A stretch of 64,000 nt of DNA. Source: Eledone cirrhosa. Lineage: Eukaryota. Position 1 is the stretch's first letter, and each line of letters starts with the position of its first letter. The notes under the pieces were generated by a model that saw nothing but the letters and a program-made list of their open reading frames with translations, did not search any database and was not told the DNA's origin. The stretch lies in NCBI GenBank assembly GCA_964016885.1, contig OZ024741.1:295492001-295556000 (forward strand), written 5' to 3'. Made by a program: the position numbers and the translations under genes. This document shows, piece after piece, positions 6,611 through 60,531 of this stretch.

Positions 6611-6722
6611 GCTTTCTGATGAAGTGTAATAAATAATTATGTATTGCATATGATTGAACAATATATTTTGTAGTCAGCATATGTAGACAATTTATAATAG
6701 ACATGGAAACATATGTCAAAGC
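6611..6722 (+). ncRNA. Minimal hammerhead ribozyme motif with long, degenerate stem II
   Basis: gcttt-CTGATGA-(~83 nt)-GAAA-catatg-TC-aaagc; stem I gcttt/aaagc; palindromic acatatgt; followed by a short tail and TA-rich sequence. Confidence 0.65.
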
Positions 6723-12123: not shown

Positions 12124-13652
12124 TCATCATCATCATCATCACCGTTTTACGTCCGTTCTTCCACGCTAGCATGGGTTAGACGGGTTGTCCTGTTGTGGGC
12201 AGTGTCTGGTCGGCTGACCATGCCTTGCTCATACAGGAACTGATTTGGCTTGATTTCTACAGCTGGATGCCCTTCCTAACACCAACCTCATTTACAGTGA
12301 GTGCTGGGTGCTTTTTCGTGGCGCCTACATGTCCACTTTACAGTGTAGGCTGGGTGCTTTTTTGCCGTGGCACCTCCACGACCACCTTGCAGTGGGGGGC
12401 GTGGGGGCATATTGTCTATATGCTTCAGCTTGTACCCATGGGAGGTCGGGTACTCTGTATTACTGCGTGACGCCAGAAGTCACGGTTGTGTGTTTTTCCC
12501 TTTGAGAGGTGTAATTGGGTAAGGTCGGCTTTTATCACCTCATCCCAGGTCATCTTGGGTCTCCCAACTCCACGGTTTCCATCAACTTCTAGTGCTCTGC
12601 ACCTTTTTATGCAGCTGTCATCCTTCATACGCATCACATGTCCATACCAGTGCAACCGCCTCTCCTGCACACAGCATTTGATTCCTCTTATGCTCAGTCT
12701 CTCTCTCAATTCATTTATGCTTTGTCGTTCACGTATATTACTTTTACACATCCATCGGAGCATGCAGGCTTCGTTTCTCTCTAATCTACGTAAGTCTTCC
12801 ACCTTCAGCGCCCAGGTCTCACTACCATGCAACATTGCTGTTCGGATACACGCATCATACAGTCTGCCTTTCATTCTGAGGGAGAAGCCTTTTGCAGCTA
12901 GCAGTGGTAGTAGTTCCCTAAACTTCTTCCATCCCGTTCTTACCCTAGTTATTGTACTTTCTGAACACCCACCTCCGCTGCTAATTCGGTCACCTAGGTA
13001 GCAGAAGCTATCTACTGTTTCTACAGAGCCCTCCCAGAGATTGGTGGTACTTGTTTCCTGTGGCTGTTTGCTGCTTGCTGTCTCAGCACAGCTGCTGCAT
13101 GTGAAGCCTACATTCTTAATTAAGCTTCCTGAGATCCCGCTACATCTCTTGTGTACCCATTGTTTGCATTTGGGGCAGAGAATGGAGTTCCTACCTACAC
13201 CTTTCCTACATACTGAGCAAGGCCATTTCCCTGAGGGGATCTGGGTTCTGTTTTCTCGTCTACTTACAAGGACTTTAGTCTTTGTCATGTTGACTTTGAG
13301 ACCCTTTCTTTCTAGTCCCTGCTTCCATTCTAAGTTTGGAATTTATTCTCTAGTTCTACCATAGATTCAGCTATGAGTGCGAGGTCATCAGCATACAGGA
13401 GTACCCATGGGCATCCGGTCTTAAACTCCTCCGTTATTGCCTGCAGGACTATGATGAACAGGAGGGGCTAAGAACAGAGCCCTGGTGGACCCCAACCTGT
13501 ACGCTAAATTCCTCGCTATACTCATTGCTAATCCTAACTTTGCTGACTGCTCCCCTATACATGGCTTGTACCGCTTTCACAAGCCATTCATCTACTCCTA
13601 GTTTTCTAAGAGCCCACCAGATTACAGCACGTGGAACTCTGTCAAAGGCTTT
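12124..13652 (-). mobile_element. RTE-clade LINE, 5'-truncated (RT with PHD-like insert, C-terminus, 3'UTR, (ATG)n tail)
   Basis: KAFDRVPR, GVHQGSVLSP, LLYADDL, ORF 12425..13288. Confidence 0.93.
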
Positions 13653-13964
13653 CAAAGTATCTCTCAATGAATGCTTAATGTTCCAACTGACATCAAAGAT
13701 ATATTTTAAAATAACCCATGATATGAAAGGGTGAAGATCCTTCGAAATAGGAAGGTTTAAAAGGAAAACAAATATCTTTGAATTTGGAACAACTGAGATC
13801 TTCCTACACAATTTTCATTTCAATGATCATCCCCCATTTTCATTCTGCAACAGATATTTCCATGTTTACATGGATTAGATGATACTGCTTAGCAACCATT
13901 CATTCTGACATCAAATGTACATTGCTAGAGTCACATATTCAATAACAAAGCAGGAGTTATTAAA

Positions 13965-13997: not shown

Positions 13998-15721
13998 ACT
14001 TGAAAGGGTCAAAGAATATCTGTGAAAATAGACATTGATGGGATTTTTTCCTCTCTACTCTATGTATGTTTTTAATTTTATTTTCATGTATAAGAAAAAA
14101 ACAACAAATCAACAACTAAAGAAATGCATTTATCTCCATGTCATGCAAGATAACATTTAACTGTGTTGACACTGCTTTCGGGTATGGAGAAAATTGTAAT
14201 CCTTTTTGTAATGACATTATATACTTTATATATGGATAGAAGAGAAAAATAAATACAAACATTGTTTGAATTAGAACAAGAGAAAATATAGAAAAAAAAA
14301 AAGAATCATAGAAAGTTTTTCACTTAAAACATCTCTCATTTTATATTCAGTTATTCAGTATGAGAAATGTAGTGATTAGCTTGATCTTATGGGATTAACT
14401 ACTTCAGATCATATTCCAAAGCAATGATTTCTATCTGGATTCAAATGGTTTATAAATTGTAATTAAAAGGTGAAAAACCTGGAACTAAATTACATCACAA
14501 AGTTGAACATTGTAACGGCTTTTTAATTTCCCTTCCTGGAATGCATGCATCTATGTGTGCATGCAAGCAGAAATATGCACAAAATAGAGTCAAACATCAA
14601 TCGTGTGCAAGTGAGCAAACGCTTGCATGAAGCAGCCAAATATCAATCAGTGAAATTCTTCCTCATTTTCCCGATTGATTTCAATGAAAAAGATATAGAT
14701 TTGGTGAGGTTCATGCTTTTCTTAATGGAATTACAGACATCAGCAGAAAATTAGAGAATTTTCTCCAGCACTTTGTGTTCTAAGTTCAAATCCCACCAAG
14801 CTCAACTTTACAATTCCTCCCTCTAGAGCCAATAGAATAAGTACTAATCTAAGTCAGTTGACTGATAGAATTCTTTGAGAGCCAGATCAGATGACTTTTA
14901 ATATTATTCCAGTTCATTGCATTCTGTGTTTAAATTCCATCATGGCCTATTATGGAAGTGGACTTAACCTTTCCAAATTTCTAAGGAAAGACAGAGCCTA
15001 TGATTTTCAGTTAATTTTGAAAATAATCAAGAAAATTGGGAGACTTAAAAAATTAGCAAACTTTCTTATTATCAACTTGGCGTTTGCAATATATTTTACA
15101 AAAGTTCTCTAAATAAAATTATGACAGAAGATTTCTGATAATTATAAACACTTTAAAACAAGAAGTTTTGCAATGTAGAACCAGGAGCAGTTTCACATGT
15201 TTTATGTTAATCTATATTCTAGTTTAGTGTCAACATGTGACCCTTGGGTCATTTTAACAGAGTTCATTCTATTACAAGTATTCAAGCCATATTTCTGGTT
15301 TGATGATACCTTCCACTCTCTTTCTCACTCATCTCAGAAGCTCGGAAAAGGGTTATGGGCGCTATAGCTGACTAAATACACCCATGTTTTTGAGGTTTTT
15401 TTCTCATTTTTTTCTGTTCCTTCCTCTTCTCACTCTCTATCTTTCTATTTCACCTTTTATTTCACATTCTATCCTCTAATTAAGGACTAGTGTTCAAAAC
15501 GTTAAGACTCTTTTCCTGCTTTATTAAGCATTATACTAATATATTATCATTGTTCTGTGTTGCTTGCTTAGTTAATTCTGTTTACTTTTTACATATATAT
15601 ATATATATATATATGTATATGTATACACACACACATATGTAGACATACAGTCCAACCCTTGCCAGCAGGGAAAACAGACATAAAATTATGATGATAATGG
15701 TGATGCATTATATATATATAT

Positions 15722-15785
<64 letters not shown>

Positions 15786-15910
15786 GGTAAACATTGATGC
15801 AATTCAATTCAAGCACTCAACGTACTTTTTCCACATAGGAGCGACGGAGTAAATATCGAATAAGGAAAAAAGCAAAGTAGTTTCAGATGTTCAAGTCCTT
15901 TAATAATAAT

Positions 15911-15984
15911 GCTGTGATACATATTTCAGTGACGACACTGGCCACACTGTTCTGTGTGCGAGTGTCGTGACATCATCAGACAGC
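15911..15984 (-). ncRNA. Minimal hammerhead ribozyme motif (left arm)
   Basis: Reverse complement reads gctgt-CTGATGA-stem II-GAAA-tatgta-TC-acagc. Confidence 0.7.
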
Positions 15985-16529
15985 TTGTTACATAATAAGG
16001 TTATGTTTCCGAGGCAATCCAAATTGGATGGACAAGGGAACGGATGAATTGCGTGTTCTTGGGTTTTTCATCCGCTCCCTTGTGAGTACCAATTCACCCC
16101 CACCGGCCTGCGCAAGCACATGTCCGAAGGAAGTTGACCATTCGCCACCGCAGACTTCAACGAAATTTGCTTAGTCAGTTCACCCTGTCATCCAAAACAA
16201 TGGCCCACCAATGCCTGTACCATATTTTACTGCTACCCATCACGGCTGTGGAAGTCAGCCGAGAGCCAGAGGGGATGGGTAGCAGTAAAATATGGTACAG
16301 GCATTGGTGGGCCATTGTTTTGGATGACAGGGTGAACTGACTAAGCAAATTCGTTGAAGTCTGCGGTGGCGAATGGTCAACTTCCTTCGGACATGTGCTT
16401 GCGCAGGCCGGTGGGGGTGAATTGGTACTCACAAGGGAGCGGATGAAAAACCCAAGAACACGCAATTCATCCGTTCCCTTGTCCATCCAATTTGGATTGC
16501 CTCGGAAACATAACCTTATTATGTAACAA

Positions 16530-16603
16530 GCTGTCTGATGATGTCACGACACTCGCACACAGAACAGTGTGGCCAGTGTCGTCACTGAAATATATATCAC
16601 AGC
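16530..16603 (+). ncRNA. Minimal hammerhead ribozyme motif (right arm)
   Basis: gctgt-CTGATGA-tgtc acgacact...agtgtcgt cact-GAAA-tatata-TC-acagc; stem I gctgt/acagc. Confidence 0.72.
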
Positions 16604-16650
16604 ATTATTAGTAAAGGACTTGAACATCTGAAACTACTTCGCTTTTCCTT

Positions 16651-16816
<166 letters not shown>

Positions 16817-19500: not shown

Positions 19501-19682
19501 AACAAAGGAAGTGTGGTAACGAACCAGATGAACCATAACGCACCAGAGTACTCAATACTTAGGGTAGTAGAGTGGGTAATAGGAAAAAGTGTAACCCCCG
19601 ACGGCAGAGCTCAAGCCATTTTGACGGCTATTTCTAGACTCGAAACGGCTTGAGCTCTGACGTCGGGGTTAAACTTTTTCCT
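19501..19682 (-). mobile_element. Short hairpin+tail element (type A) in (TA)n
   Basis: ~100-nt hairpin 19582-19682 plus tail; same family as 34491 and 60348. Confidence 0.75.
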
Positions 19683-19910
19683 ATATATATATATATATAT
19701 ATATATTAAATTGTTTAGAACTACAAGTGAAATCATTATTTGCCTTTTTTAAATATATATATATATATAAATAGCTTAGAGTTTAGACTCAGAGAGGTCA
19801 TTTACAATCATTTCAGCTCTAGGAATCGCTTCTGAGCAGTATATATATATATATGAATTAATAAAAACAATGAAATAAAAACAAAGAACAGATTCCTTAT
19901 ATTGAAAGAA

Positions 19911-20051
19911 TCATCATTTTACGATCGTTTCTGGGATATATATGTGTGTGTTGGTATGTATATCATTAAATATCTATGTAAAAAAATATTACAAATTATC
20001 AGAGGAGATATACATACCTTCACTTATATATGCCATCTTCAGAAATGATGA
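19911..20051 (-). ncRNA. Hammerhead ribozyme motif in the inverted repeat
   Basis: tcatcattt-CTGAAGA-tgg...cca-GAAA-cgatcg-TA-aaatgatga (9-bp stem I). Confidence 0.8.
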
Positions 20052-22233
20052 AGTATGTTTATTGAAAGAAACAAAGTATTAATACAAAAAGTCTGTTTGG
20101 GAACAGGTTTTGAATTGACCAATAGAAAAGAGTTAGAGGTCAAGTTGATAGAATAACAGTAGTTATAATAACAGTTTTATAATGAAGCTTTAGCTAGAAG
20201 CGGCCATAAGAACAAATTAGTCTATATACCTCGCACCAATAATATTTCAAACATACAACCTAATATTACCAACAAACACCAAATGAAAAACCCACACCTA
20301 AATTCCACTCATACTACACCTAAAAACACCAACCCAAAACTTAATTTCTCTACCTCTTCTCACATAAAAGATAATGACTTTCAAAAAATCATTCACCCTA
20401 ATGCTCTTACATATGTCAACAAGATAACTAAAAAAAGTTCTAGTGATCAGACTAAAACATCAATTAAACCTATACATAACTAAACCTATATATAATAAAA
20501 CCACTAATAGTAACTCTCTCAGTGAACCTCCCAATACATCATATAAATATAAGAAACAATGTTGAAACCGTAATAGACGGGTTACTTGGTATAATGCTCC
20601 ATTTAATCTACAGATTAAAGACCATATCCCTAAAAAATTCTTTGCTATCCTAGAGAAAAACTTCCCACCAAACCATAAATACCATCAAATTTTAAATAGA
20701 TCTACTGTCAAATTTTCCTACTCCACTACCAAGAATATACAACAGAATATAAGTGCGTACAACACATATAAGTGTAAAAAAAACATAAATATACCACCAA
20801 CACATCAAACCAACCATAATAATACTAAAGTAAACCAAAACAAACCACCTTCTTCTTCACCTATAATAGGTCCCGTAAACTCCACACCGATTTTGACTAA
20901 TAATCTCCAAAACAAACAGAACTCTACTAGCTCCACATCCCCTTAAACTACCACCCACCAACAACCTGTCTAACCATACTAATCTAATTAGAACCCATTC
21001 TAAACCATACATTAATGAAAATAGTAACACTAATACCACTACAGATAATACAATTAACTCTCCTGATACAATATTTACGAATGGCTGTAACTGTAGAATT
21101 CAAAGAAATTGCCCATTAAAGGGAAATTGTCTTATTAATAACATAGTCTATAAATGTGTAATTAGTACTAAGGACTCCACTCAATCCTATATAGGAGTTA
21201 CGTCTAACCAATTTAAAGTAAGATTTAATACCCACAAACATAGTTTTAAAAATGCCACATTAGCTAAGCAGTTAATAATTACAGAAAGAAGGATATTGAT
21301 TACAACCAGACCTGGAGCGTGCTCAAAAGGGCCATCCCTTATCAAAATAGCAGATATGAGTGTAGGTTATGCTCCCAAGAACTATTTGAAATCATGAAAT
21401 CTAATGATATCCTATTAAATAAGCAACAGGAGTTAATTATATCATGCAATCATAGAATTTGAAAAACCTTCAAATATTATAAACTTAATTAATATATAAA
21501 TTATTATAATTAATTTTAAAATGTTTTTTTTCATTTAGTTAACCTATAATTAGATATTTACTACAAAGAATTTCATAATTTTATTTCCCTCTTACAGCTC
21601 ACTTTACCTAAAGTTATCTTGAACCTCACTACTTCTTTTAACCGCATCCCCTATCTATCACATTTAATACCTAGGATTAGTAAATATAATTAATATCTTT
21701 AATATTATGGATGTTTAGATAGATACACTATTTTTTATAAAATTTTATCTATTTCAGTCTTTCGATATATATATATATATATATATTTTTTTTTTTTTTA
21801 CTTCTTTATTTATCACATTCATAAGAATTAATATAATTTTAACTCTGTAAGTATACATATCAATTAATTTAATTTCCTTTTGTGTATCTAAGTTCCTTGA
21901 AATTTAAACAGTAGTATTTCTCACTAACACTCTCATCTCACAAAAAATTCTTTTCCCTTCGCTTTTAACAACATTCTTTAATAACATAAATTTTTTGGGG
22001 GAATCATTCACTATCTCATTGACTTGACCTCATTTTAACCCCTACCCTTCTCTTCCCCATTGTATTCTTTTCATTCAAAGTATAAATTTACATTCCTCCA
22101 CTCCTAGCATAAAGTTTCTACTACTGTTATTCTATCAACTTGACCTCTAACTCTTTTCTATTGGTCAATTCAAAACCTGTTCCCAAACAGACTTTTTGTA
22201 TTAATACTTTGTTTCTTTCAATAAACATACTTC

Positions 22234-22372
22234 ATCATTTCTGAAGATGGCATATATAAGTGAAGGTATGTATATCTCCTCTGATAATTTGTAATATTTT
22301 TTTACATAGATATTTAATATGATATACATACCAACACACACATATATATCCCAGAAACGATCGTAAAATGAT
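22234..22372 (+). ncRNA. Hammerhead ribozyme motif in the 3' terminal repeat
   Basis: atcattt-CTGAAGA-tgg(~100 nt)cca-GAAA-cgatcg-TA-aaatgat; palindromic acgatcgt. Confidence 0.8.
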
Positions 22373-22565
22373 TTTTTCAATATAAGGAACCTGTTCTTTG
22401 TTTTTATTTCATTGTTTTTATTCATTTATCTTGACTCTGTTTTCCTATGATTTTTATCGTTAATTTTGAATGCATTTTCTCTTTTCATGATATCTTCTAT
22501 ATTTGGATTACATTGAGTTCTTCATACGGATTAGACACTACCGTTTATTTTGGTAGTTTTTATCT

Positions 22566-22602
<37 letters not shown>

Positions 22603-22881
22603 CCAGTGAGAATCGTATTTCGGCTAGTAGAAAAAGCGAAACGAAACACAAAATCGTAGATATGCTGGCAAGCGCTCAATAGTTAAAAAAAACTAGAGCT
22701 AAACAATAAGTTAAAACGCCATACAGACTGAAAAAGCGGTTAAGAAGGCATTAACCACCTAAGCCAAAAAACAAATCAAGCTAAACAGGTCAAACAAAAT
22801 AAAAGAATAAAAACCGACATGGACCCAAATGGAATTGGTGGTAAAATCCAAATGTAGGGTTTCTATGACAATTAAATCAAT

Positions 22882-22994: not shown

Positions 22995-23859
22995 AATACT
23001 GTCTGCTTAAAACTATAAGCTTTCAGCATAAAGATCGAACAAGGAATATCACGTTATCAACAGGTAATTTTGGTGTGTAACCAATTTTGCGAGTGACGCA
23101 TAAGTTAGTAAATGCACATGCATAAGTCACAAGGGGAAAATTCCCCATATTTTGGCAAATGAATTCAGTATGTGTATATCATATAAAAAATTGCATAGAT
23201 AGCACAAATCGGATAATCACTCAACCGGGTAGTTTTTAAAATAAACTTATGCAATTAATCTGTCAATAGAATTATTAACAGGTTAATTGTAAGGCTCGGG
23301 AGATTAATACAAATATAATTCAGCTAGAATCGTATTTCGGCTGGTAGAAAAAGCGAAACGAAACGCAAAATTGTAGAAATGCTGGCAAGCGCTCAATAGT
23401 TAAAAAACTAGAGCTAAACAATAAGTTAAAATATATATATGAAGGAAAAGAATGTCTTCACTTGTAGTGAAGTCATTAAATTAAATTAAACAATTTAATT
23501 TAATTTTATAATATCATAATTTTACAATTTCATTTTGTAGATCTAGTAAGTTAGTTAACTTCGGTGGGGAGATTTTTTTAGAGATTCCTGGTTAACTTTC
23601 CTGTGGCGATTGTCAAACTGATCTCAGGTTGTGTTGTGATGTGTGACTCTCTATATAAAAGATTTAGGTGTGTCTGGGGGAAAGAGGGGTTAATAAGTGT
23701 GGGAGTGAAGGAGTGTTGTTGAAGATTTACAGGAATTAAAGTATATATATATATATACAGAAAATAGTGAATGCTAAGAGCAAGATAATTGATTGTTAGT
23801 GGGGTTGGGAGGTGTTGGGATGTTTAAGGAGTGTTTTAGAAAGGGGTTGTAAAAGTGCC

Positions 23860-25945
23860 ATCCTTCTTTACATTGCGGGCAGGTTGCACAGTAAATTTAT
23901 TTTTTCGTTTTGCAATTCCTGTTTGCATTAACTTTGAAAATCTCATTGCTTTTAAAGGAGATTTTCCCACCCTCTTCAATGTATTCACAAGTTCCGCATC
24001 GAGGGTCGCCACATTTCTTAATTTGCATTATTTCATTGTAAGATGTAAATTTTACCTTGGTGAGCAGCTTTTTTAGCTTGGCTGCTTGGCATCTACTATA
24101 TATTATTTGTAAGTTCAAATCCCGCCGAGGTTAACTTTGCCTTTCATCCATACAGAGGTCGATAAAATAAAGTACCAGTAATGTACTGGTTAATTGCTGG
24201 CCTTGTGCCAAAAGTAGAAACAATTATTTGTAAGTCTTTTATGAGTGCATTCATTTTGGGGGGCTGCTGGAGAATTGGGAGATATTGTTTAGTGGCTTTC
24301 ACAATGTTGAAGTTCCTTGGATTGTAAGTGAAGTGATGACAAAAGGGATAACTGTTTTTCCCTTTTGTTTTGTTGGTTTGTTTTTCTCACTGAGATGTTC
24401 TGAGCCTTGGAGATGTCCATATTGATGAGCTTCACCGGATATTCTTGTCTTTTAAGGAACTCTTTTAGTTCATATAATCTTTTTTCCTGTAGTGTGGGGT
24501 GTGTTACTATGGTGGAAATGCATCTTGCTATGTCAAAGGGAATGTTCCTTTTGGTATGTGAGGGGTGTGCTGATCGGAAATTCAGTATTGGTGTGTGTCT
24601 GTTGATTTGTAAAATAGGTCTGTTGTGATATTTTCCCCTTCTTTAATGATAAGGATATCCAGAAATGGTAGTGCCTTTTTATTTCATTCCATGGTAAATT
24701 TTATTGCTTTGTGAAGCCTGTTTATGATGGAATGGAATCTTTGCAGGTTTTCTTGGCTTTTATTCCAGAATATGAAGCTGTCGTCTAGGTAATGTTTCCA
24801 GTTATTAATGCGGCGAAGTCATGACTGAATGTTTCCTGCAGCTGGGAATATAATTTTGTCTCTAGGTGACCCATAACGAGTGTTGCCTATGTTAGGGCTA
24901 CTTTCGTGCCCATGGCCATTCCTTTTATTCATAAAGAGGAAGTGGTTGTTCTCCAATACTAATTTGAGTCCTTCCAAAATAAAATTTTTTGCAAATCTCT
25001 CTGAAATGTAGTCTGGGTGTTTTGTAATCCAGAAGTCAACAGCTTCAATTCCTAAGTTGTGTGGGATGTTAGTATATAAGCTTGTTACATCAAAGCTGAC
25101 TAAGATTGTTTCTTGGTGTACTTTCTGGGTAATATAGTTCAGGAATTCCATATCATCTCTGATGAAGCTTGGCACTTTTTTACATAAAGGTTTCAGTATG
25201 ATGTCTAATAGGTTCCTTAGACGTTGTGTGCTTGAGGCTGGATCAGCAACATTTGGGCGTAATTTTAAGTCTGTCAGTTTTGGTACTTCAACATATGATG
25301 TATTTTTGCCTTTTATGTTGTTTTGGATTTCTCTGGATTTGTGAACTTTCAGCAATCCATAAAAATTGGTGGTTTCATTTCGAAGTTGGTTAAGTAATTG
25401 ATTTCCTTTAGCATGAGATTATTTTGGTACTTGTCGTCAGTTTGCCTACTTGAATCATCGATTTTCTTTCTTCACTTTTGCTGATTTTCCTGTTAACCCC
25501 CCGTCATTCAACTGTTCTAGGACCATATCCTTGTAGTGGTTTTTGTTCATGATGACGATTGCTCCACCTTTGTCAGCTTCTTTTATGATTATTGAGGAAT
25601 CTTTTTGTAACTTGTTTAGTGCTAACAGTTCGTCTCTGCAATATTTGACTGTGCCAATCATCATAGGCAGGCTATGTATTCGTCCAGGTATGTGTCTCTA
25701 TTTAACGGGCATTTGAAGTTCTTTCTGTTTTTCACTAGTGATTCCTCCTTGTATTCTACACCCTGGAAGAATTCTCCTAAATGTAAATCTTCTGTGTCTT
25801 TTATAAGGTCGGCTTGATCTGCTTTTGGAGGGGGTGTGAACTTCAGTCCATTTTCTAACAGTTTGATTTCCTGTTGTGTTCGTTTCTTGGCTGATATGTC
25901 GATTATTTTTGGTTCCTTTGGGTTTTTCTCATTGAGTGCCACTTG
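23860..25945 (-). mobile_element. Penelope-like element (Neptune-type) RT plus Cys linker, degenerate; SINE S1 fragment inserted at 24112-24228
   Basis: LLENGLKFTP, IIIKEADKGGAIVIMN, KVHK..LRP, LVSFDVTSLYTNIPH, YLDD, CGDPRCGTCEYI. Confidence 0.9.
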
Positions 25946-26273
25946 AAGGGTGGTATTTATTTCTTTTTTTCCTTCATTTGGTGGGAGGCACCTTGTTCTA
26001 AAACTTAATTACCATTTGAGATAGCAATGTTTTTGTTGTGGTAAAATATTCTGCTCGCTGGCATTTTGTGTTGAAAATTTTCTGAAATCTTGTTAAGTGG
26101 TTGATATATGTGGGTCTGGTTCTTCTGCTGCTCCATTCGGTCTTCATGTGTCTTTGATTTTGCCTCTCGTAATTGTTCTTGGGGTTTTGACAGTAGTTGT
26201 ATCTGGTTCTGATTTTTAGTATTTGGTCTGTGTATATATATATATATTTATGTATGTATATATATATATATAT

Positions 26274-32954: not shown

Positions 32955-33776
32955 ATAGTCAGTTATATGGTTTGTAGTCAGACATTACTGGGCTGGAATA
33001 TTTGGTTGATGGATTGTAGTCAGACATTACTGGGCTGGAATATTTGGTTGATGGATTGTAGTCAGACATTACTGGGCTGGAATATTTGGTTGATGGATTG
33101 TAGTCAGACATTACTGGGCTGGAATATTTGGTTGATGGATTGTAGTCAGACATTACTGGGCTGGAATATTTGGTTGATGGATTGTAGTCAGACATTACTG
33201 GGCTGGAATATTTGGTTGATGGATTGTAGTCAGACATTACTGGGCTGGAATATTTGGTTGATGGATTGTAGTCAGACATTACTGGGCTGGAATATTTGGT
33301 TGATGGATTGTAGTCAGACATTACTGGGCTGGAATATTTGGTTGATGGATTGTAGTCAGACATTACTGGGCTGGAATATTTGGTTGATGGATTGTAGTCA
33401 GACATTACTGGGCTGGAATATTTGGTTGATGGATTGTAGTCAGACATTACTGGGCTGGAATATTTGGTTGATGGATTGTAGTCAGACATTACTGGGCTGG
33501 AATATTTGGTTGATGGATTGTAGTCAGACATTACTGGGCTGGAATATTTGGTTGATGGATTGTAGTCAGACATTACTGGGCTGGAATATTTGGTTGATGG
33601 ATTGTAGTCAGACATTACTGGGCGGGAATATTTGGTTGATGGATTGTAGTCAGACATTACTGGGGCTGGAATATTTGGTTGATAGGTTGTAGTCAGACAT
33701 TACTGGGCTGGGATATTTGGTTGATGGTTTGTAATCAGACATTACTGGGGCCTGAATATTTGGTTGATAGGTTGTA
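32955..33776. repeat. 42-bp minisatellite, ~19 copies
   Basis: Unit gtagtcagacattactgggctggaatatttggttgatggatt; identical core with divergent edges. Confidence 0.97.
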
Positions 33777-34350
33777 AAGTGTTAAACCTAATGACCTATA
33801 AACATATTTTAATTCCAATGTGAAAAAGTTCATCAACAATAATTGAAGGTAATGAGAGAAGTTTAGTGAAGCAACCTTAGTAAAGATATTTTTATATTAA
33901 TTGACAATCTCATCAGTCATATCGTAGTTTGAAGTCTTGCTTGCTATTACACTGAGAAGAGATATTAACACATATATGTGTTTATTGAAAATTCAGAAAT
34001 TTCGCTGTAAATATATATCTATATGTATGTATGTATACATACATTTATTTAAAATTCAAAAATGTCATTATATATATATATATATATTGGTACGGACCTA
34101 TAATAACACACACAAAACACATGCTTACGCACGTGCTCAAGTATAGCTCATTTTACAAAACGGGTTGTTTTTCATTTCAGGTAGACGCGCTCCATCATCC
34201 ACTTTTCTAAAAAACAAATCATACACAAAACGGCAGCACCAACAGTTTTGTAAGAGATGTCAACATGAATGGACCTGTTATTTTTATCTAAAGACATTTT
34301 TTCCAATTCCATCCCGCCCGTCCCCTCAATCTATTTTATTTCTCATTCTT

Positions 34351-34386
34351 TCTTCTGATGAAGGACTAGCGTCCGAAATGTTAAGA
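34351..34386 (+). ncRNA. Compact minimal hammerhead ribozyme motif
   Basis: tctt-CTGATGA-a-ggac tagc gtcc-GAAA-tg-TT-aaga; followed by an ~85-nt tail and (TA)n. Confidence 0.78.
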
Positions 34387-34490
34387 TCCTGTTCCTGCTA
34401 TATCAAGCGTTAACCTAATATATACCTTCTATATACTATACCGATTGTGTTGTTATTTCTGTTTACCTTTTCCATATATATATATATATA

Positions 34491-34676
34491 GGAAAATGTT
34501 TAACCCCGACGGCAGAGCTCAAGCCGTTTCGACGGCTATTCCAGAAATAGCTGTCAAAACGACTTGATCTCTGCCGTCGGGGTTAAACATTTTCCTATTA
34601 CCCACTCTACTACCCTAAGTATTGAGTACTCTGGTGCGTTATGGTCCATCTGGTTCCTTACCACAATTCCTTCGTT
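34491..34676 (+). mobile_element. Short hairpin+tail element (type A) in (TA)n
   Basis: Hairpin 34491-34595; tail tattacccactctactaccctaagtattgagtactctggtg... Confidence 0.78.
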
Positions 34677-34783
34677 ATATATATATTTGCTCTAGGGATC
34701 TTATATATTTGATATATATTTATCCTTATCGAGCCCTCTTTGGATTTTAGTCTTCAAATTTATTATTATTACTATATATATAT

Positions 34784-34974
34784 GAATCAGAATGGATGTA
34801 GTAAAAAAGCTGTTAGACCATTACTCACCAGAGTACTCAATACTTGGTGCAGTAGAGTGTGGTAATATGAAGTAGTCAGGACCCCCAAGGGCTGAGCTCC
34901 TGCTGTTTCAACAACTAGTTTGAAACTAGCTGTTGAAATGGCAGGAGCTCACCCGTTGAGGTCTCAACTCCTTC
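34784..34974 (-). mobile_element. Short hairpin+tail element (type B)
   Basis: Hairpin ~34869-34974; tail shares ccacactctact..aagtattgagtactctggtg with type A; second copy at 60139-60323. Confidence 0.72.
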
Positions 34975-36169: not shown

Positions 36170-37145
36170 AACAACACCTGTTACATATGTCCACCTTGTT
36201 TACTTTTGTGATATAAATAACACCTGTGTTACATATCCACCTTCTTTACCTTTGTCATATAAATAACACCTGTGTTACAGATGTCCACTTTGTTTACCTT
36301 TGTCAAATAAATATAACAATTAACACCTGTGTTACATATGTTTACCTTGTTTACCTTTGTCATGTAAATTTAACTTCTGATTAACACCTGTGTTAGATAT
36401 GTTTACCTTGTTTACCTTTGTCATATAAATTTAACTTCTGATTAACACCTGTGTTAGATATGTTTACCTTGTTTACCTTTGTCATATAAATTTAACTTCT
36501 GATTAACACCTGTGTTAGATATGTTTACCTTGTTTACCTTTGTCATATAAATTTAACTTCTGATTAACACCTGTGTTACATATGTTTACCTTGTTTACCT
36601 TTGTCATATAAATTTAACTTCTGATTAACACCTGTGTTAGATATGTTTACCTTGTTTACCTTTGTCATATAAATTTAACTTCTGATTAACACCTGTGTTA
36701 GATATGTTTACCTTGTTTACCTTTGTCATATAAATTTAACTTTGGATTAACACCTGTGTTAGATATGTTTACCTTGTTTACCTTTGTCATATAAATTTAA
36801 CTTTGGATTAACACCTGTGTTAGATATGTTTACCTTGTTTACCTTTGTCATATAAATTTAACTTTGGATTAACACCTGTGTTAGATATGTTTACCTTGTT
36901 TACCTTTGTCATATAAATTTAACTTTAGATTAACACCTGTGTTAGATATGTTTACCTTGTTTACCTTTGTCATATAAATTTAACTTCGGATTAACACCTG
37001 TGTTAGATATGTTTACCTTGTTTACCTTTGTCATATAAATTTAACTTCGGATTAACACCTGTGTTAGATATGTTTACCTTGTTTACCTTTGTCATATAAA
37101 TTTAACTTCGGATTAACACCTGTGTTACATATGTTTACCTTTGTC
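36170..37145. repeat. 61-bp minisatellite, ~13 conserved copies plus degenerate left-edge units
   Basis: Unit taacacctgtgttagatatgtttaccttgtttacctttgtcatataaatttaacttctgat. Confidence 0.95.
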
Positions 37146-42485: not shown

Positions 42486-43227
42486 AATGACTGAAGTCAA
42501 ATGACTGAAGCCAGTAAAAGAATGAAAAAATAAAGGAATATATGGGGAACAAAACAAGAAGAAAAGAAAAACAAGAGAGGTTATAGTACAGAAAATTGAA
42601 GTTATTAGGTTAATGTTTTGGAGAAGTAAAAAAAGAGTTAATTATGACGTTTTGGGCAACGCCTTTCTTTAGAAGAATAAGAAAAGAATGGCGGAAAGAA
42701 TGGAGAAATAATAAAAAAAATAAAGAGAAAAAAGTTTGAGGCAATTTGCCACATGCCTCCTGGATTGTGATATTTATATATTATATGTTTGTGTATGTGT
42801 ATAAAAGACAATCTCATGTAAAAGTTAAGTTTAGTACATTTAGCTTTTTTACTGAGTGTAAGTGGACATATAAGAGTTATATGGGGAGACAGAGCTTGTT
42901 AGCCTTGGTTAACAGCCTGTCTAGGAAAAGAGTCACTCTGATTTCAAAACTAGCATAGACAAGACTCCTTAACCACCTTGGCAACAAATTTTCACATGAC
43001 CAAGGGCAGCTCATCTTTCTGAGGAAGATGGATGAGCTGCAGCTCAGTAGCCAGCTTCTGAGTAATAGTCAGAACAGGATTCAGGACCAACCAATTTCAA
43101 TCTTTTTTTGCTAATGAGAATTATGGATATACAGCATCATATAGATGAGCATTCGTGCAATTGTCCATGGTCCCCAACCCTCAACAATGAGGGTGGGAAG
43201 AGACCAGACCAGATATACATACACACA

Positions 43228-45320
43228 TGAGGAGAATAAATGGGAGAAAGACAGTCTCCCCCACATCGACCCAATAGAGGGACCAGCAGTGTTAGTCGAG
43301 GGTAGTATAATAAGTAAGGCAATCAAAGATATGAAGACAGGCAAGGCGGCTGGGCCTTCGGAAATAGTTGCCGAGATGCTGAAGGCATCTGGTACGGTGG
43401 GACACACCATGGTCACCCGGATAGTCAACCAAGTCATACAGAATGGGGTTGTTCCGAAGGACTGGCGCACCAGCATTATCGTTAACTGTTATAAGGGTAA
43501 AGGAGATGCACTAGATAGGAGTAACTATAGAGGCATTAAATTAATCGACCAGGTCATGAAGGTCACGGGAAAAGTTATAGCGCAACTAATCAGAGAGCGA
43601 ATTGATCTAGATGAAATGCAGTTCGGGTTTGTGTCAGGAAAAAGTACCACAGACGCTCTTTTCATTGTACGACAACTACAGGAGAAGTACCTAGCTAAAA
43701 GTAAACCCCTATACTTAGCTTTCGTCGACTTGGAGAAGGCCTTCGACAGAGTCCCCCGTTCCATTATCTGGTGGGCTCTTAGAAAACTAGGTGTTGATGA
43801 ATGGCTTGTGAGAGCTATACAAGCCATGTATAAAGAAACAGTTAGCAAGGTTAGAATTAACAACGAATATAGTGAAGAGTTTAGTGTAAAAGTTGGTGTT
43901 CATCAGGGCTCTGTTCTTAGCCCCCTACTATTTATTATTGCCCTCCAGGCTATAACAGTGGAGTTCAAGACCGGCTGCCCATGGGAACTCCTATACGCAG
44001 ATGATCTAACGCTCATAGCTGAATCAATGGCCGAGCTAGAGAAGAAATTCCGAACATGGAAGCACGGCCTAGAATCAAAAGGCCTTAAAATTAACCTAGC
44101 TAAGACTAAAGTTCTAGTTTGTAAGAAAGAAAATAAGGCGGCGGTCCCCTCCGGGAAGTGGCCATGCGCAGAGTGTAGGAAAGGCGTAGGTAGAAATTCC
44201 ATTTTGTGTCCCAAATGCAAAGTTTGGGTGCATAAAAGATGTAGTGGGATCACAGGTAAGTTAACTAAGAACATAGATTTTACATGTGGCCGGTGTTCTG
44301 GGGATATAAGTAGCAGCAAGTGCCCACAAAATACTAGCTCTTTCAACTGCGCAGAGGGTTCTATAGAAATAGTGGACAGCTTCCGTTACCTGGGTGACAA
44401 AATCAGCAGTGGGGGAGGGTGCTCTGAAAGTACAGTAGCTAGAGTCAGAACTGGGTGGAAAAAGTTCAGAGAGCTTATACCACTATTAGCCGCTAAAGGG
44501 TTCTCCCTAAAAATGAAAGGCAGGCTGTACGATGCCTGCATACGAACAGCAATGTTGCATGGCAGTGAGACCTGGGCATTGTGTGCAGAGGATATACGCA
44601 GACTAGAGAGAAACGAAGCTTGCATGCTCCGCTGGATGTGTAATAGTAATATACGTGAACGACAAAGCATAAACGAACTAAGGAAAAAATTAGAAATAAG
44701 AGGGATCAGATGTTGTTTACTAGAGAGAAGGCTACGTTGGTATGGTCACGTGATGCGCATGAAGGATGATAGCTGTATAACAAAGTGCAGGGCAATAAAG
44801 ATAGACGGTAGCCACGGAATAGGCAGACCCAGAAAAACCTGGGACGAATTGATAAACACCGACCTCACACACTTACACCTCACCAAGACAATGTCACTGG
44901 ACCGAGACCTTTGGCGGTACTCAGTAATAGAGAAGACCCGCCTTGCCAGTAGGCATCTCTAACAAAATACACCCCGTCCCACCACCACAACCCCCACCCC
45001 ATCCACACCACCCCGTTCTATGTAAAGTTATGTTGGTGCCGCGCCATCCAGGCCGAAACAAATGAGATCGTGTAGGTGTCACGACAAAAAAACACACAGT
45101 CCACGCTGTAATGTGGCCGTGTAGGCAACACGGTAAAAACCTCCCAGACCCACACTGTAAATGTGGTTGGTGTTAGGAAGGGCATCCAACTGTAGAAAAC
45201 CTGCCAGACAGTCCTATGCGAGCAAGAAAATCACTCTTGCCTCAAGTGGGACTACCCCCGTCCAAACCCATGCAAGCGTGGAACACGGACGTTAAATGAT
45301 GATGATGATGATGATGATGA
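43228..45320 (+). mobile_element. RTE-clade LINE, 5'-truncated, with uninterrupted RT-to-stop frame, 3'UTR and (ATG)n tail; a second RTE 3'UTR follows at 45321-45537
   Basis: ORF 43145..44962: YKGKGD..NYRGIKL, QFGF, FVDLEKAFDRV, GVHQGSVLSP, YADD, PHD-like finger, FRYLG. Confidence 0.95.
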
Positions 45321-46313: not shown

Positions 46314-49300
46314 AGTGAACCCCTTAACCACAAAGCTATGCCTACACCTATGCTGTGGGTTAAACCCCTTAACCACATAGCTTTCCTACACCTATGTTGT
46401 GGGTTAAACCCCTTAACCACACAGCTTTCCTACTCCTATGTTGTGAAATAAACTCCTTAACAATACAGCTTTCCTACACCTGTTGTGTGATAAACTCCTT
46501 AACAATTCAACTTTCCTACAACTGTTGTGTGATAAACTCCTTAACAATACAGCTTTCCTACACCTGTTGTGTGATAAACTCCTTAACAATTCAACTTTCC
46601 TACACCTGTTGTGTGATAAACTCCTTAACAATTCAACTTTCCTACAACTGTTGTGTGATAAACTCCTTAACAATACAGCTTTCCTACACCTGTTGTGTGA
46701 TAAATTCCTTAACAATACAGCTTTCCTACACCTGTTGTGTGATAAACTCCTTAACAATACAGCTTTCCTACACCTGTTGTGTGATAAACTCCTTAACAAT
46801 TCAACTTTCCTACACCTGTTGTGTGATAAACTCTTTAACAATTCAACTTTCCTACACCTGTTGTGTGATAAACTCCTTAACAATACAGCTTTCCTACACC
46901 TGTTGTGTGATAAACTCCTTAACAATTCAACTTTCCTACACCTGTTGTGTGATAAACTCCTTAACAATTCAACTTTCCTACACCTGTTGTGTGATAAACT
47001 CCTTAACAATTCAACTTTCCTACACCTGTTGTGTGATAAACTCCTTAACAATTCAACTTTCCTACACCTGTTGTGTGATAAACTCCTTAACAATTCAACT
47101 TTCCTACACCTGTTGTGTGATAAACTCCTCAACAATACAGCTTTCCTACACCTGTTGTGTGATAAACTCCTTAACAATTCAACTTTCCTACACCTGTTGT
47201 GTGATAAACTCCTTAACAATACAGCTTTCCTACACCTGTTGTGTGATAAACTCCTTAACAATTCAACTTTCCTACACCTGTTGTGTGATAAACTCCTTAA
47301 CAATTCAACTTTCCTACACCTGTTGTGTGATAAACTCCTTAACAATTCAACTTTCCTACACCTGTTGTGTGATAAACTCCTTAACAATTCAACTTTCCTA
47401 CACCTGTTGTGTGATAAACTCCTTAACAATTCAACTTTCCTACACCTGTTGTGTGATAAACTCCTCAACAATACAGCTTTCCTACACCTGTTGTGTGATA
47501 AACTCCTTAACAATTCAACTTTCCTACACCTGTTGTGTGATAAACTCCTTAACAATTCAACTTTCCTACACCTGTTGTGTGATAAACTCCTTAACAATTC
47601 AACTTTCCTACACCTGTTGTGTGATAAACTCCTTAACAATTCAACTTTCCTACACCTGTTGTGTGATAAACTCCTTAACAATTCAACTTTCCTACACCTG
47701 TTGTGTGATAAACTCCTTAACAATACAGCTTTCCTACACCTGTTGTGTGATAAACTCCTTAACAATACAGCTTTCCTACACCTGTTGTGTGATAAACTCC
47801 TTAACAATTCAACTTTCCTACACCTGTTGTGTGATAAACTCCTTAACAATTCAACTTTCCTACACCTGTTGTGTGATAAACTCCTTAACAATTCAACTTT
47901 CCTACACCTGTTGTGTGATAAACTCCTTAACAATTCAACTTTCCTACACCTGTTGTGTGATAAACTCCTTAACAATTCAACTTTCCTACACCTGTTGTGT
48001 GATAAACTCCTTAACAATACAGCTTTCCTACACCTGTTGTGTGATAAACTCCTTAACAATACAGCTTTCCTACACCTATGTTGTGGAATAAACTCCTTAA
48101 CAATACAGCTTTCCTACACCTGTTGTGTGATAAACTCCTTAACAATTCAACTTTCCTACACCTGTTGTGTGATAAACTCCTTAACAATTCAACTTTCCTA
48201 CACCTGTTGTGTGATAAACTCCTTAACAATACAGCTTTCCTACACCTATGTTGTGGAATAAACTCCTTAACAATTCAACTTTCCTACATCTGTTGTGTGA
48301 TAAACTCCTTAACAATTCAACTTTCCTACACCTGTTGTGTGATAAACTCCTTAACAATACAGCTTTCCTACACCTGTTGTGTGATAAACTCCTTAACAAT
48401 ACAGCTTTCCTACACCTGTTGTGTGATAAACTCCTTAACAATTCAACTTTCCTACACCTGTTGTGTGATAAACTCCTTAACAATTCAACTTTCCTACACC
48501 TGTTGTGTGATAAACTCCTTAACAATACAGCTTTCCTACACCTGTTGTGTGATAAACTCCTTAACAATACAGCTTTCCTACACCTGTTGTGTGATAAACT
48601 CCTTAACAATACAGCTTTCCTACACCTATGTTGTGGAATAAACTCCTTAACAATACAGCTTTCCTACACCTGTTGTGTGATAAACTCCTTAACAATTCAA
48701 CTTTCCTACACCTGTTGTGTGATAAACTCCTTAACAATACAGCTTTCCTACACCTATGTTGTGGAATAAACTCCTTAACAATACAGCTTTCCTACACCTA
48801 TGTTGTGGAATAAACTCCTTAACAATACAGCTTTCCTACACCTGTTGTGTGATAAACTCCTTAACAATTCAACTTTCCTACACCTGTTGTGTGATAAACT
48901 CCTTAACAATACAGCTTTCCTACACCTGTTGTGTGATAAACTCCTTAACAATTCAACTTTCCTACACCTGTTGTGTGATAAACTCCTTAACAATACAGCT
49001 TTCCTACACCTGTTGTGTGATAAACTCCTTAACAATTCAACTTTCCTACACCTGTTGTGTGATAAACTCCTTAACAATTCAACTTTCCTACACCTGTTGT
49101 GTGATAAACTCCTTAACAATACAGCTTTCCTACACCTATGTTGTGGAATAAACTCCTTAACAATACAGCTTTCCTACACCTATGTTGTGGAATAAACTCC
49201 TTAACAATACAGCTTTCCTACACCTATGTTGTGTGATAAACTCCTTAACAATACAGCTTTCCTACACCTATGTTGTGGAATAAACTCCTTAACAATACAG

Positions 49301-50252
49301 CTTTCCTTCACCTATGTTGTGTGATAAACTCCTTAACAATACAGCTTTCCTACACCTGTTGTGTGATAAACTCCTTAACAATTCAACTTTCCTACACATG
49401 TTGTGTGATAAACTCCTTAACAATACAGCTTTCCTACACCTATGTTGTGTGATAAACTCCTTAACAATACAGCTTTCCTACACCTGTTGTGTGATAAACT
49501 CCTTAACAATTCAACTTTCCTACACCTGTTGTGTGATAAACTCCTTAACAATACAGCTTTCCTACACCTGTTGTGTGATAAACTCCTTAACAATTCAACT
49601 TTCCTACACCTGTTGTGTGATAAACTCCTTAACAATTCAACTTTCCTACACCTGTTGTGTGATAAACTCCTTAACAATACAGCTTTCCTACACCTGTTGT
49701 GTGATAAACTCCTTAACAATTCAACTTTCCTACACCTGTTGTGTGATAAACTCCTTAACAATTCAACTTTCCTACACCTGTTGTGTGATAAACTCCTTAA
49801 CAATACAGCTTTCCTACACCTGTTGTGTGATAAACTCCTTAACAATACAGCTTTCCTACACCTATGTTGTGGAATAAACTCCTTAACAATACAGCTTTCC
49901 TACACCTGTTGTGTGATAAACTCCTTAACAATACAGCTTTCCTACACCTGTTGTGTGATAAACTCCTTAACAATACAGCTTTCCTACACCTATGTTGTGG
50001 AATAAACTCCTTAACAATACAGCTTTCCTACACCTGTTGTGTGATAAACTCCTTAACAATACAGCTTTCCTACACCTGTTGTGTGATAAACTCCTTAACA
50101 ATACAGCTTTCCTACACCTATGTTGTGGAATAAACTCCTTAACAATACAGCTTTCCTACACCTATGTTGTGGAATAAACTCCTTAACAATACAGCTATGT
50201 TTGCACCAATGTGGTGAAGTGAACTCCTTAACCACACAGCTATGCCTGTACC
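46314..50252. repeat. 42-bp (with 44-bp variants) minisatellite, ~90 copies
   Basis: Unit ttcctacacctgttgtgtgataaactccttaacaat(acag|tcaa)ct. Confidence 0.98.
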
Positions 50253-56381: not shown

Positions 56382-59278
56382 CTTTTCTGGGTGGGAAATG
56401 ACAATGGGCTGGGTGGTGTAGGAATCATCGTAGCAGAAAGTGGGCAGATAAGATAATAGACGTAAATAGAGTGAACGACAGAATAATTGAAATAAGACTT
56501 GTCCTCAATAGAACTACTATGACAATAATATGTGCATATGCACCACAATCCGGACTGCCTGGCATTATAAAAGACAGATTCTATGAGACTTTAATGCTCA
56601 CTACCTCCCAAATAACTGACAGTAACTACATAATTATCGCTGGCGACCTAAATGGTCACGTTGGGCAACATTGTGATGGCTATGACGGAATCCATGGAGG
56701 CTATGGGTTTGGTACTAGAAATAAGGAAGGCTCCAGAATCCTGGAATTCTGTGACGCAAATAACCTAACTATCTGTAACACAAACTTCAAAAAACGAGAC
56801 AATCACTTGATCGCCTATAGATCGGGGGAACACACAAGCCAGGTAGATTATATCCTTACCAGAAGATGTGACAGAGTGTCTGTTGTAAACACTAAATCCC
56901 TCCCCCATGAAGAATGCACCTCTCAACATAGACTCATAATTAGCGACCTCATAGTCAGGACGAGACGTACTCGACAACAAAAGAGGACTATCCTCAGGAG
57001 AAAAATATGGAAGTTAAAGGACCCCACAGCCAGTAATAAATTTAAAAGCATATTACTTGATGCTTTTGATAGTAAGGAAGAGCAATTAGAGTCGTACAAT
57101 ATAGAGGAACAGTGGGAATTCCTGAAAGCTAACCTGCTGAAGGCGACAGATGAAACCTGTGGCTGGAGCAGACCTATAGGCAGGAGGAGAGTAACTTGGT
57201 GGTGGAACAGTAAGGTGGAGGGGTCAATCAAGGCCAAAAAGTAGGCTTGGAAAGCATGGCGGGATGGTGGAAGTAGAGAAGACTATCAAGTGGCCAGGAG
57301 GAAAGCTAGGAGACAAGTGTACTTCGCAAGAAGGGAAGCAGAGGAAAGAAAGTTCAAGCATGTTCTACAATGCGAGGACCAAAAACGTGAGGTGTTCAGG
57401 ATTGCTAGGCAATGTGTCAAGGAAAACCGTGATATTGTCGGGGAGAAGTGTGTCCTTAATGATGATGGTGTATTTGCCATCACTGACGCTGATAAGAAGG
57501 TAGCTTGGAAGTGTCACTACGAAAGGCTACTAAATGAGGAGAAAAATTTGGAGAAAGACAGTCTCTCCCACCAATAGAGGGACCAGCAGTGCAAGTTGAA
57601 GGTAGTATAATAAGTAAGGCGATCAAAGACATGAAGTCAGGCAAGGCGGCTGGGCCTTCGGAAATAGTTGCTGAAATGCTGAAAGCATCTGGAATGGTGG
57701 GACACACTATGGTCATCCGGATAGTAAACCAAGTCATACAGAATGGGGTCGTTCCGAAGGACTGGCGCAGCAACATCATCATTAACTGCTACAAGGGTAA
57801 AGGAGATGCCCTAGATAGGGGAAACTATAGAGGCATTAAATTAATTGACCAGGTCATGAAGGTCACAGAAAAAGTAATAGCGCAACTAATCAGAGAGCGA
57901 ATTGATCTAGATGCAATGCAGTTCGGGTTTGTGTCAGGTAAAAGTACCACAGACGCTCTTTTCATTGTACGACAACTACAGGAGAAGTACCTAGCTAAAA
58001 GTAAACCCCTATACTTAGCTTTCGTCGACTTGGAGAAGGCCTTCGACAGAGTCCCCCGTTCCATTATCTGGTGGGCTCTTAGAAAACTAGGTGTTGATGA
58101 ATGGCTTGTGAGAGCTATACAAGCCATGTATAAAGAAACAGTCAGCAAGGTTAGAATTAACAACGAATATAGTGAAGAGTTTAGAATAAAAGTTGGTGTT
58201 CATCAGGGCTCCGTCTTTAGCGCCCTACTATTTATTATTGCCCTTCAGGCTATAACAGAGGAGTTCAAGACCGGCTGCCCATGGGAACTTCTATACACAG
58301 ATGATCTAACGCTCATAGCTGAATCAATGGCTGAACTAGAGAAGAAATTCCAAACATGGAAGCATATTCCTGTCTAAGACTAATGTTCTAGTTTGTAGGA
58401 AGGAAAATAGGGCACTGGTCCCATCTGGGAAATGGCCATACTCAGTGTGTAGGAAAGGAGTAGGCAGAAACTCCATTTTATGTCCCAAATGCAAAGTATG
58501 GGTGCATAAAAAATGTAGTGGGATTACAGGTAAGCTAACTAAGAATATAGATTTTATATGTGGCCGGTGCTCAGGTGCAATAAGTAACAGCAAGTGCCCA
58601 CAAAATACTAGCTCATTCCATTGCACAGATGGTTCTATAGAAATAGTGGACACCTTCCGTTACCTGGGTGACAAAATCAGCAGTGGCGGAGGGTGCTCTG
58701 AAAGTACAGTAGCTAGAGTCAGAACGGGATGGAAAAAGTTCAGAAAGCTAATACCACTATTGGTCGCTAAAGGGTTCTCTCTAAAAATGAAAGGCAGGCT
58801 GTATGATGCCTGCATACGAACAGCAATGTTACATGGCAGTGAGACCTGGGCATTGTGTGCAGAGGATATACGCAAACTGGAGAGGAACGAAGCTTGCATG
58901 CTCCGTTGGATGTGTAATAGTAATATACGTGAACGGCAAAGCATAAATGAACTAAGGGAGAAATTAGGAATAAGAGGAATCAGATGTTGTTTACTCGAGA
59001 GAAGACTACGTTGGTATGGTCACGTGATGCGCATGAAAGACAACAGCTGCATAAAAAAAGTGCAGGGCGATAAAAATAGACGGTAGCCACAGAGTAGGCA
59101 GACCCAGAAAAACCTAGGACGACTTGATAAATTCCGACCTCAAACACTTACACCTCTCCAAGACAATGTCACTGGACCGAGATCTTTGGCGCTACACAGT
59201 AATACAGAAGACCCGTCTTGCCTAAGTACAAAGCGAAACCTACAGTCAGTAAGCACCTGTAACAAAAATACACCCCCT
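56378..59278 (+). mobile_element. Near full-length RTE LINE ORF (APE + RT + PHD-like finger), disrupted by stops and frameshifts
   Basis: YAPQSG, GDLNGHVG, SQVDYIL, SQHR (APE); RT ORFs 57589..58377 and 58445..59086 closely match the 43-45 kb copy. Confidence 0.95.
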
Positions 59279-60518: not shown

Positions 60519-60531
60519 TATATATATATAT

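Follow-up and report, generated by a model that had tools for sequence, protein, structure and literature searches.

Five copies of a ~190-base repeat in the window (the whole 64-kb stretch of Eledone cirrhosa DNA analyzed here) represent, with a probability of about 0.75, one ORF-less miniature family of insertions made by a Penelope-like element (PLE) in or beside TA repeats. Each copy consists of a palindrome of about 105–115 nt and a one-sided tail of 80–85 nt (60 nt in the deleted copy A60348). Since this anatomy is the described PLE/Naiad pattern, and is also present on a GIY-YIG-bearing PLE in the same window, the suggestion in the initial annotation of an undescribed class of elements is not supported; the palindrome-plus-tail repeats are probably a new family of the PLE insertion pattern, not a new class of element. 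Their membership in a named PLE clade is unproven, and the enzyme possibly belongs to the Naiad clade.

Anatomy and setting of the five copies

Searches with blastn and an nhmmer profile recovered exactly five copies from the window (E-values of 5e-43 to 2e-33, against E = 5 for the next, unrelated match), the same five hairpins with one-sided tails that the initial annotation had named and had sorted into types A and B. Two groups can be distinguished, but A and B are 72–77% identical and homologous across the arms and the first half of the tail in blastn and in alignments, so that, judged by sequence, they are two subfamilies of one family and not separate types.

In element orientation, the order within a copy is (TA)n, inverted arm, direct arm, internal TA or AT, tail, (TA)n. 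A direct arm and its tail form a unit of ~140 nt; ahead of it stands an inverted copy that covers the arm but not the tail, and the arms are 76–90% complementary. The last base of the inverted arm at the joint is the C found just before the internal TA/AT of the direct copy, and (TA)n adjoins it there. The association with (TA)n noted earlier was seen at nine of the ten ends, the exception being the tail end of B60139, which has no TA run; target-site duplications are unreadable within (TA)n flanks. A right repeat extended on one side is also found in DIRS1, and a non-autonomous DIRS-like (tyrosine-recombinase) retroelement, which combines inverted terminal repeats with a one-sided 3' extension, would share this outline. 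The A/B arms, however, enclose a loop of only a few bases with no internal complementary region, and none of the nine window ORFs scanned matched a recombinase, which makes a DIRS-like origin remote.

A34491 (34491–34675, plus strand, as delimited by blastn/nhmmer) begins with its inverted, distal copy (34491–34537, minus), which borders the upstream (TA)n run at the very base that marks, in the direct copy, the passage into the tail. Its direct arm (34538–34595, plus) begins 18 nt ahead of the GAAA position and runs as far as the C preceding the internal TA, and its 80-nt one-sided tail (34596–34675, plus), followed by (TA)n, holds the conserved 19-nt motif at 34617–34635 (plus), which includes an 8-bp palindrome. 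B34784 (34784–34974, minus strand, from the same searches) has an 85-nt tail at 34784–34868 (minus; motif at 34827–34845) ending at an (AT)n run, a direct arm at 34869–34927 (minus) and an inverted copy at 34928–34974 (plus) joined to (AT)n at 34975. A19501 (19502–19681, minus) comprises a tail at 19502–19581 with the motif at 19542–19560, a direct arm at 19582–19640 and the shortest inverted copy, at 19641–19681. A60348 (60348–60517, plus) has its inverted copy at 60348–60399, its direct arm at 60400–60457 and its tail, with a ~19-nt deletion, at 60458–60517 (motif at 60479–60497). B60139 (about 60139–60323, minus) is made up of a tail from about 60139 to 60221 (motif at 60180–60198), a direct arm at 60222–60279 and an inverted copy at 60280–60323.

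The direct copies have a common 5' start: in the alignment all five begin at a single base, 18 nt ahead of the GAAA position. Such a common start is not expected from random truncation, and suggests a defined RNA end or a strong reverse transcriptase (RT) stop. It is sharply defined only in A19501 and A60348, and overlaps the palindrome centre in the B copies and A34491. The inverted copies stop at varying points in the alignment of the five copies.

The longest open frame of A/B is 62 amino acids, with no RT plus GIY-YIG ORF of the kind that marks autonomous PLEs, and the peptide from the longest frame of A34491 had no match among 1.84 billion proteins. The reported lack of Pol III boxes and of symmetric terminal inverted repeats (TIRs) was borne out. 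No B box occurs in any of the five copies, which excludes the A plus B box arrangement of a tRNA-derived SINE, and the one-mismatch A-box matches at 19565 and 34602 do not exceed chance, with 21 such matches found and 21 expected. The second repeat lies 80 nt inside the element, and the arm ends differ between A and B. These small ORF-less mobile-element copies are, in line with the earlier proposal, neither tRNA SINEs nor standard MITEs, and de novo annotation would likely label such a mini-PLE family as unknown, MITE or SINE.

The co-occurrence of A and B at two places was also correctly noted: each of the two B copies has its own A neighbour within 350 nt (34491–34974 and 60139–60517), for which the chance is about 0.012–0.015, assuming independent landing in the window's 85 TA runs. 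The tails face each other at 34.7 kb and the hairpins at 60.3 kb, and this difference in orientation between the two pairs rules out an A+B composite element. Two 3'-end pieces, at 34176–34473 and 15455–15592, are 75% identical and terminate at (AT)n. A CTGATGA...GAAA core lies at 34355 in the first piece, which also shares a TA run with A34491.

The window is repeat-rich, mostly 29–45% GC, and besides its 85 (TA)n runs contains RTE-like LINEs, minisatellites and PLE fragments. The LINE copies, with RT and a PHD-like finger, lie at 43145–44962, 56402–59230, 12425–13814 and 7468–8223, and the minisatellite arrays at 32967–33776 (42-bp units), 36264–37141 (61-bp) and 46318–50196 (42-bp). Possible host exons at 3956–4204 and 4361–4729 (minus), partly repeated, had no match in a protein search.

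The Penelope-like insertion pattern

The insertions described for the Naiad and Hydra clades, including Octopus families (PMC8557442), show an inverted 5'-truncated copy, a one-sided 30–40-bp tail and a (TA)n target, and A. vaga insertions carry inverted pLTRs with a 31-bp tail (PMC3846280), as far as the accessible text of these sources extends. PLEs make up 6.8% of the O. vulgaris genome, according to the available part of PMC13282606. In all five A/B copies an inverted 5'-truncated copy lies next to the 5' end, and the target is AT-rich or (TA)n at all but one of the ends. The tail is at one end only in five of five, but measures 80–85 nt (60 in one) against the published 30–40 bp; that of a PLE in the window is ~140 nt.

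This PLE, a decayed element that is not a member of the family, served as an internal control. It spans 19855–22569 (plus) between (TA)n runs, with a ~310-bp inverted 5' copy and a ~140-nt one-sided tail, and contains a GIY-YIG-like ORF piece at 20897–21394 (plus) and a type I hammerhead at 22241 (mirror at 20042). The GIY-YIG-like region gave a Pfam E-value of 0.021, below the cut-off, and an Atlas score of 0.94–0.96, with one of the top three clusters 12% GIY-YIG. A second control, D (15783–16654, minus), is a ~800-bp palindrome with ~400-bp arms and a ~75-nt one-sided tail between (TA)n runs, and has a type I hammerhead with a stable helix II at 16535 (mirror at 15979). The third, C (60531–60789, minus), is a single copy between (TA)n runs, with a ~200-bp palindrome, a possible tail of ~63 nt and a weakly scoring hammerhead core at 60693. 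In a hammerhead scan, three independent loci (the PLE, D and 6616) scored 13 or more, and none of 200 shuffles had more than two; at least one such locus was present in 53 of the 200 shuffles, so the D hammerhead taken alone is borderline. The stretch 6607–6730, near TA runs, contains a type I hammerhead-like motif whose helix II is very long.

In the PLE, D and C, the inverted copy ends at a C and is joined to (TA)n, and the direct copy continues with AT, GAT or TA into the tail; the same C|TA or C|AT joint is found in A/B and in these controls. The initial annotation had called for an autonomous element with the same tail. None was found in the window, nor any autonomous partner or ORF-linked copy of A/B. 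Naiad ORFs are marked by an N-terminal GIY-YIG and by CxC and DKA motifs; the endonuclease of the PLE at 19855 is apparently at the C-terminus, and the RT at 24289–26008 has DKG, so neither looks like a Naiad. This RT belongs to the stretch of a second decayed PLE (23440–26230, minus), with DKG and GLKF motifs and molluscan RT relatives at 50–68% identity (Octopus sinensis at 50%). A repeated ~110-nt segment beside (TA)n, at 22601–22715 and 23325–23430, has a GCCGAAA motif on the minus strand and is possibly another PLE-end family.

How might such an insertion arise? A PLE RT-GIY-YIG protein, probably a dimer, would nick both strands of a TA repeat. Reverse transcription of a ~140-nt 3'-end RNA would be primed by one nick at the tail end and by the second at the internal TA/AT site, 80 nt further upstream, after which the two cDNAs would be joined head to head. 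On this view the tail would correspond to the interval separating the two start sites, and it probably includes a protein-binding signal; the hairpin would be a by-product, remade at each insertion and decaying afterwards. The second arm could also come from fold-back of a single cDNA, with the same product expected, and the template could be either an independent short RNA or a full-length transcript on which the RT meets a strong stop. The accessible text of PMC11167929 reports that the PAc enzyme, a predicted dimer, cleaves and extends both strands at AT-rich DNA, that PAc tail length equals the distance between two RT start sites, and that the Penelope tail is needed for endonuclease recognition. 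The earlier proposal that the tail is the enzyme signal fits these Penelope tail data. We infer the twin-priming step, since a literature search found no PLE paper on twin priming.

A TA-targeting fold-back MITE of Tc1/mariner type could also yield this structure, if it had inserted next to another small repeat, now the tail, and the two had then spread together as a composite. The A palindrome is bounded by TA on both sides, and the Octopus vulgaris repeat annotation has many Tc1-mariner families and MITEs (PMC13282606, available part). The window holds no solo hairpin or solo tail, with both parts carried by five of five copies, and its PLE-marked elements show the same joint. In TIR elements the terminal repeats are the conserved part. 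A/B show the opposite, arm ends differing between A and B and the tail being most conserved, and such a composite is improbable.

In a truly new minimal non-autonomous class, the possibility raised by the initial annotation, the palindrome and tail would be copied whole by an unknown enzyme. Size is fixed in five of five copies, and no match was found in Rfam (at gathering level), GTDB, plasmids, phages, protein representatives or the supplements of PMC8557442, PMC10085705 and PMC13282606 as available. In GTDB the 23-nt tail pattern had no match, and blastn against plasmids and phages returned none for A/B. Two GTDB matches to the 19-mer (L001 and L002) were rejected; they are about the number expected by chance, and the profile matched around the motif only, with no arm or palindrome. 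Literature searches returned no paper on the A/B palindrome-plus-tail family by title. However, little can be concluded from the missing database matches, since the collections searched hold no eukaryotic repeat libraries; the inverted copies vary in where they end, and the anatomy has PLE precedents both in print and in the window. A new class is improbable.

Tail conservation and arm decay

The conserved tail motif of the initial annotation is real: the 19-mer has five matches at three or fewer mismatches against 0.02 expected, and none of 100 shuffles reached five. Within the element, conservation is highest in the first half of the tail, with 33 of 39 columns invariant versus 20/49 and 33/59 in two arm regions, in part because that half is CpG-poor. 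Tail variation falls mostly in the loop of a possible AC-rich stem-loop, which shows no compensatory change; single arm-plus-tail units and tails fold no better than shuffles (z from 0.97 to -1.62). Against eight other TA-adjacent ends in the window, the A/B tails showed no significant similarity (best p = 0.058, for the D tail). In A, the arm motif TTGAGCTCTG (34563–34572, with one base changed in A34491) and the tail motif TTGAGTACTCTG (34622–34633) differ by a central TA only, a likeness that suggests a duplicated dyad site.

Helentron/Helitron2 elements have short asymmetric repeats, a 3' hairpin and a T-rich target. A non-autonomous element of this type, moving by rolling circle, would account for the placing of the A/B repeats, one terminal and its partner subterminal; a weak stem-loop is also possible in the tail. 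But the A/B repeats, at ~50 nt, fill the whole palindrome instead of being short, there is neither a CTRR end nor a T-tract target in the (TA)n flanks, and the stem-loop is not significant, leaving a Helentron origin very improbable.

The initial annotation had pointed to paired changes in the hairpin, and RNAalifold did find double-sided change in 12 of 62 predicted pairs. Within copies, the arms mismatch at 34 of 259 columns; 24 of these mismatches break pairs, 10 are GU-compatible and 12 are of CpG type. The paired changes are thus present but do not support a selected RNA structure, because inverted duplication itself yields double-sided changes. The arms are an inverted duplication in decay. 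A duplicated, selected structured RNA (a miRNA-like hairpin or a ribozyme) would draw on the same double-sided changes and on sub-threshold miRNA-model matches; with most arm mismatches breaking pairs, and Rfam matches far below gathering scores and of a generic long-hairpin type, it is the hardest of the readings to credit. Rfam searches of the whole window and three sub-regions gave only such sub-threshold generic hairpins, and Rfam is insensitive here, as no hammerhead model matched even at the window PLE.

The A/B differences and two copy-specific variants (in A19501, and in B34784 versus B60139) are present in both arms of a copy, which favors remaking of the palindrome from one arm. One GA variant, common to the proximal arms only of two A copies, points against remaking, but is ambiguous because it lies at a CpG.

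Naiads, rearranged hammerheads and other known systems

The Octopus elements Naiad_Obim and Naiad_Ovul resemble A/B in their (TA)n target, inverted 5'-truncated copy, one-sided tail and lack of a canonical hammerhead, as described in the accessible part of PMC8557442. They differ in being 3.4–4.4 kb long with an EN-RT ORF and 30–40-bp tails, whereas A/B are ~190 bp and ORF-less, with 80–85-nt tails and a shared 5' start. Compared by eye and post hoc, with no alignment statistic, the 3' ends of Naiad_Obim/Ovul and A/B have short features in the same order at similar distances from the terminus. GTCGAAAC lies about 106 nt from the end in Naiad_Obim/Ovul and 121–126 nt in A/B; CCGT and a G run follow, then CTGA 27 nt past GAAA (29 in B), and a terminal CATCCATTT is common to the Naiad_Obim/Ovul ends and B60139. 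GTCGAAAC occurs three times in the 584-kb supplement of PMC8557442 as available, two of them at the Obim/Ovul ends. A gapped GAAA...CCGTNGGG pattern, designed post hoc from the two Naiad motifs described below, was found in 2 of 10 arms against 0.02 expected.

A similar TCC..TTTGA motif closes five of the 47 Naiad 3' ends examined (out of 54), these five belonging to Octopus and Acropora, and similar T-rich motifs also occur away from termini in other consensus sequences of the supplement. The 13-nt Naiad terminal motif was absent from A/B at two or fewer mismatches and occurred four times elsewhere in the window (7.3 expected); another Naiad motif was absent from the whole window. The A/B tail 19-mer and arm motifs matched none of the Naiad or Hydra 3' ends in the accessible supplement of PMC8557442. 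A/B are not copies of the published Octopus Naiad families. We put a Naiad-type partner for A/B slightly above an even chance.

In published consensus sequences inspected by eye, Naiads described as having no canonical hammerhead seem to contain rearranged hammerheads. By eye, the 3' ends of Naiad-2_Nbra, Naiad-3_Nbra, Naiad_Hcon and Naiad_Hpol show hammerhead blocks in the type-CSG order, with helices I, II and III of 4–9 bp each, whose sequences vary between species yet still pair; these ends scored at most 'HHR_core' or 'HHR_half_core' in the accessible part of PMC8557442. Naiad_Obim, _Ovul, _Amil, _Aacu, _Anas and _Esco 3' ends show, also by eye, an S-G-C block order. In the three worked through (Ovul, Amil and Esco), helix I is 6 bp and helix III 5–8 bp, and the predicted cut lies 13, 17 and 16 nt before GAAA, respectively. 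In the Octopus and Acropora Naiads the partner of helix II precedes the cut site and does not follow CUGAUGA, a topology outside the six block orders given in the available text of PMC10085705; in Naiad_Esco no helix II partner was seen by eye. That text reports only two natural type-CSG sequences and makes no mention of Naiads or octopus, and literature searches found no title linking Naiads to permuted hammerheads.

These arrangements allow a more specific reading, in which A/B would be retrotransposed offcuts of a ribozyme, the template being the cut-off 3' product of a rearranged hammerhead. Naiad 3' ends would carry non-circularly permuted hammerheads, missed as 'half cores'; self-cleavage 13–18 nt upstream of GAAA would free a ~140-nt 3' RNA with both RT start sites, and, starting at both nicks, the Naiad enzyme would copy this RNA into (TA)n. 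The product would be a palindrome of constant size with its tail, and no promoter of its own would be needed. The A/B start, 18 nt before GAAA, is near the expected cut of a type-SGC/CSG ribozyme (Eckert et al. 2023, PMC10085705, as available), and several Naiad 3' ends show these block orders by eye. The GAAA block of type-SGC is present in A/B; the candidate core, CTGGTG(A/C), has A6G and is at best degenerate, helix I is only 3 bp in four of five copies, and a 6-bp helix II exists in B only. A/B thus differ from type-SGC/CSG hammerheads in having no intact CUGAnGA block. Neither a complete hammerhead nor a CUGAnGA-based fold was found in A/B; one could lie upstream of the truncation point. 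We consider the offcut reading unlikely, though worth keeping in view, because the CUGAnGA block in A/B is at best degenerate. The possibility that A/B hold the 3' half of a type I hammerhead found no statistical support, as the GAAA-helix-UC half is at chance (12 in the window versus 1–13 in 20 shuffles). The role of PLE ribozymes is an open question in PMC11167929 and PMC8557442, in their accessible parts, and A/B could make it testable; if the offcut reading is true, PLE ribozymes would have a product that can be seen in genomes, and rearranged hammerheads would be widely represented in animals.

Returning to the PLE reading as a whole, A/B can be set beside the other named systems, described here from the accessible parts of their sources. 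PLE hammerheads and retrozymes are defined in PMC4209133 and bioRxiv 10.64898/2026.07.22.740005. Non-LTR retrozymes (bioRxiv 10.64898/2026.07.22.740005) and non-autonomous Chlamys elements, e.g., MRC1 (PMC8557442), are like A/B short, ORF-less and thought to be moved by PLE enzymes. They form head-to-tail repeats, and each retrozyme unit has a full type I hammerhead, whereas A/B are single head-to-head palindromes without a full hammerhead; tandem units each with a type I hammerhead, the mark of non-LTR retrozymes, were not found in A/B. Nor do A/B have the type I hammerhead in the pLTR of canonical PLEs (Penelope/Poseidon, Neptune, Nematis and Hydra); a (TA)n target with no canonical hammerhead is, in contrast, among the traits that define Naiads, and A/B share it. 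Penelope/Poseidon elements (A. vaga Pen2a, PMC3846280; PAc, PMC11167929) share with A/B the inverted pLTR and an optional tail. Unlike A/B, they contain an ORF, their pLTR includes a type I hammerhead, and they are not (TA)n-specific, with 8–10-bp target duplications in A. vaga. In PAc, cleavage of both strands at AT-rich DNA and a tail lying between two RT start sites fit A/B, which offer a clean genomic picture of this two-start-site model, so far seen in vitro for one element (PMC11167929).
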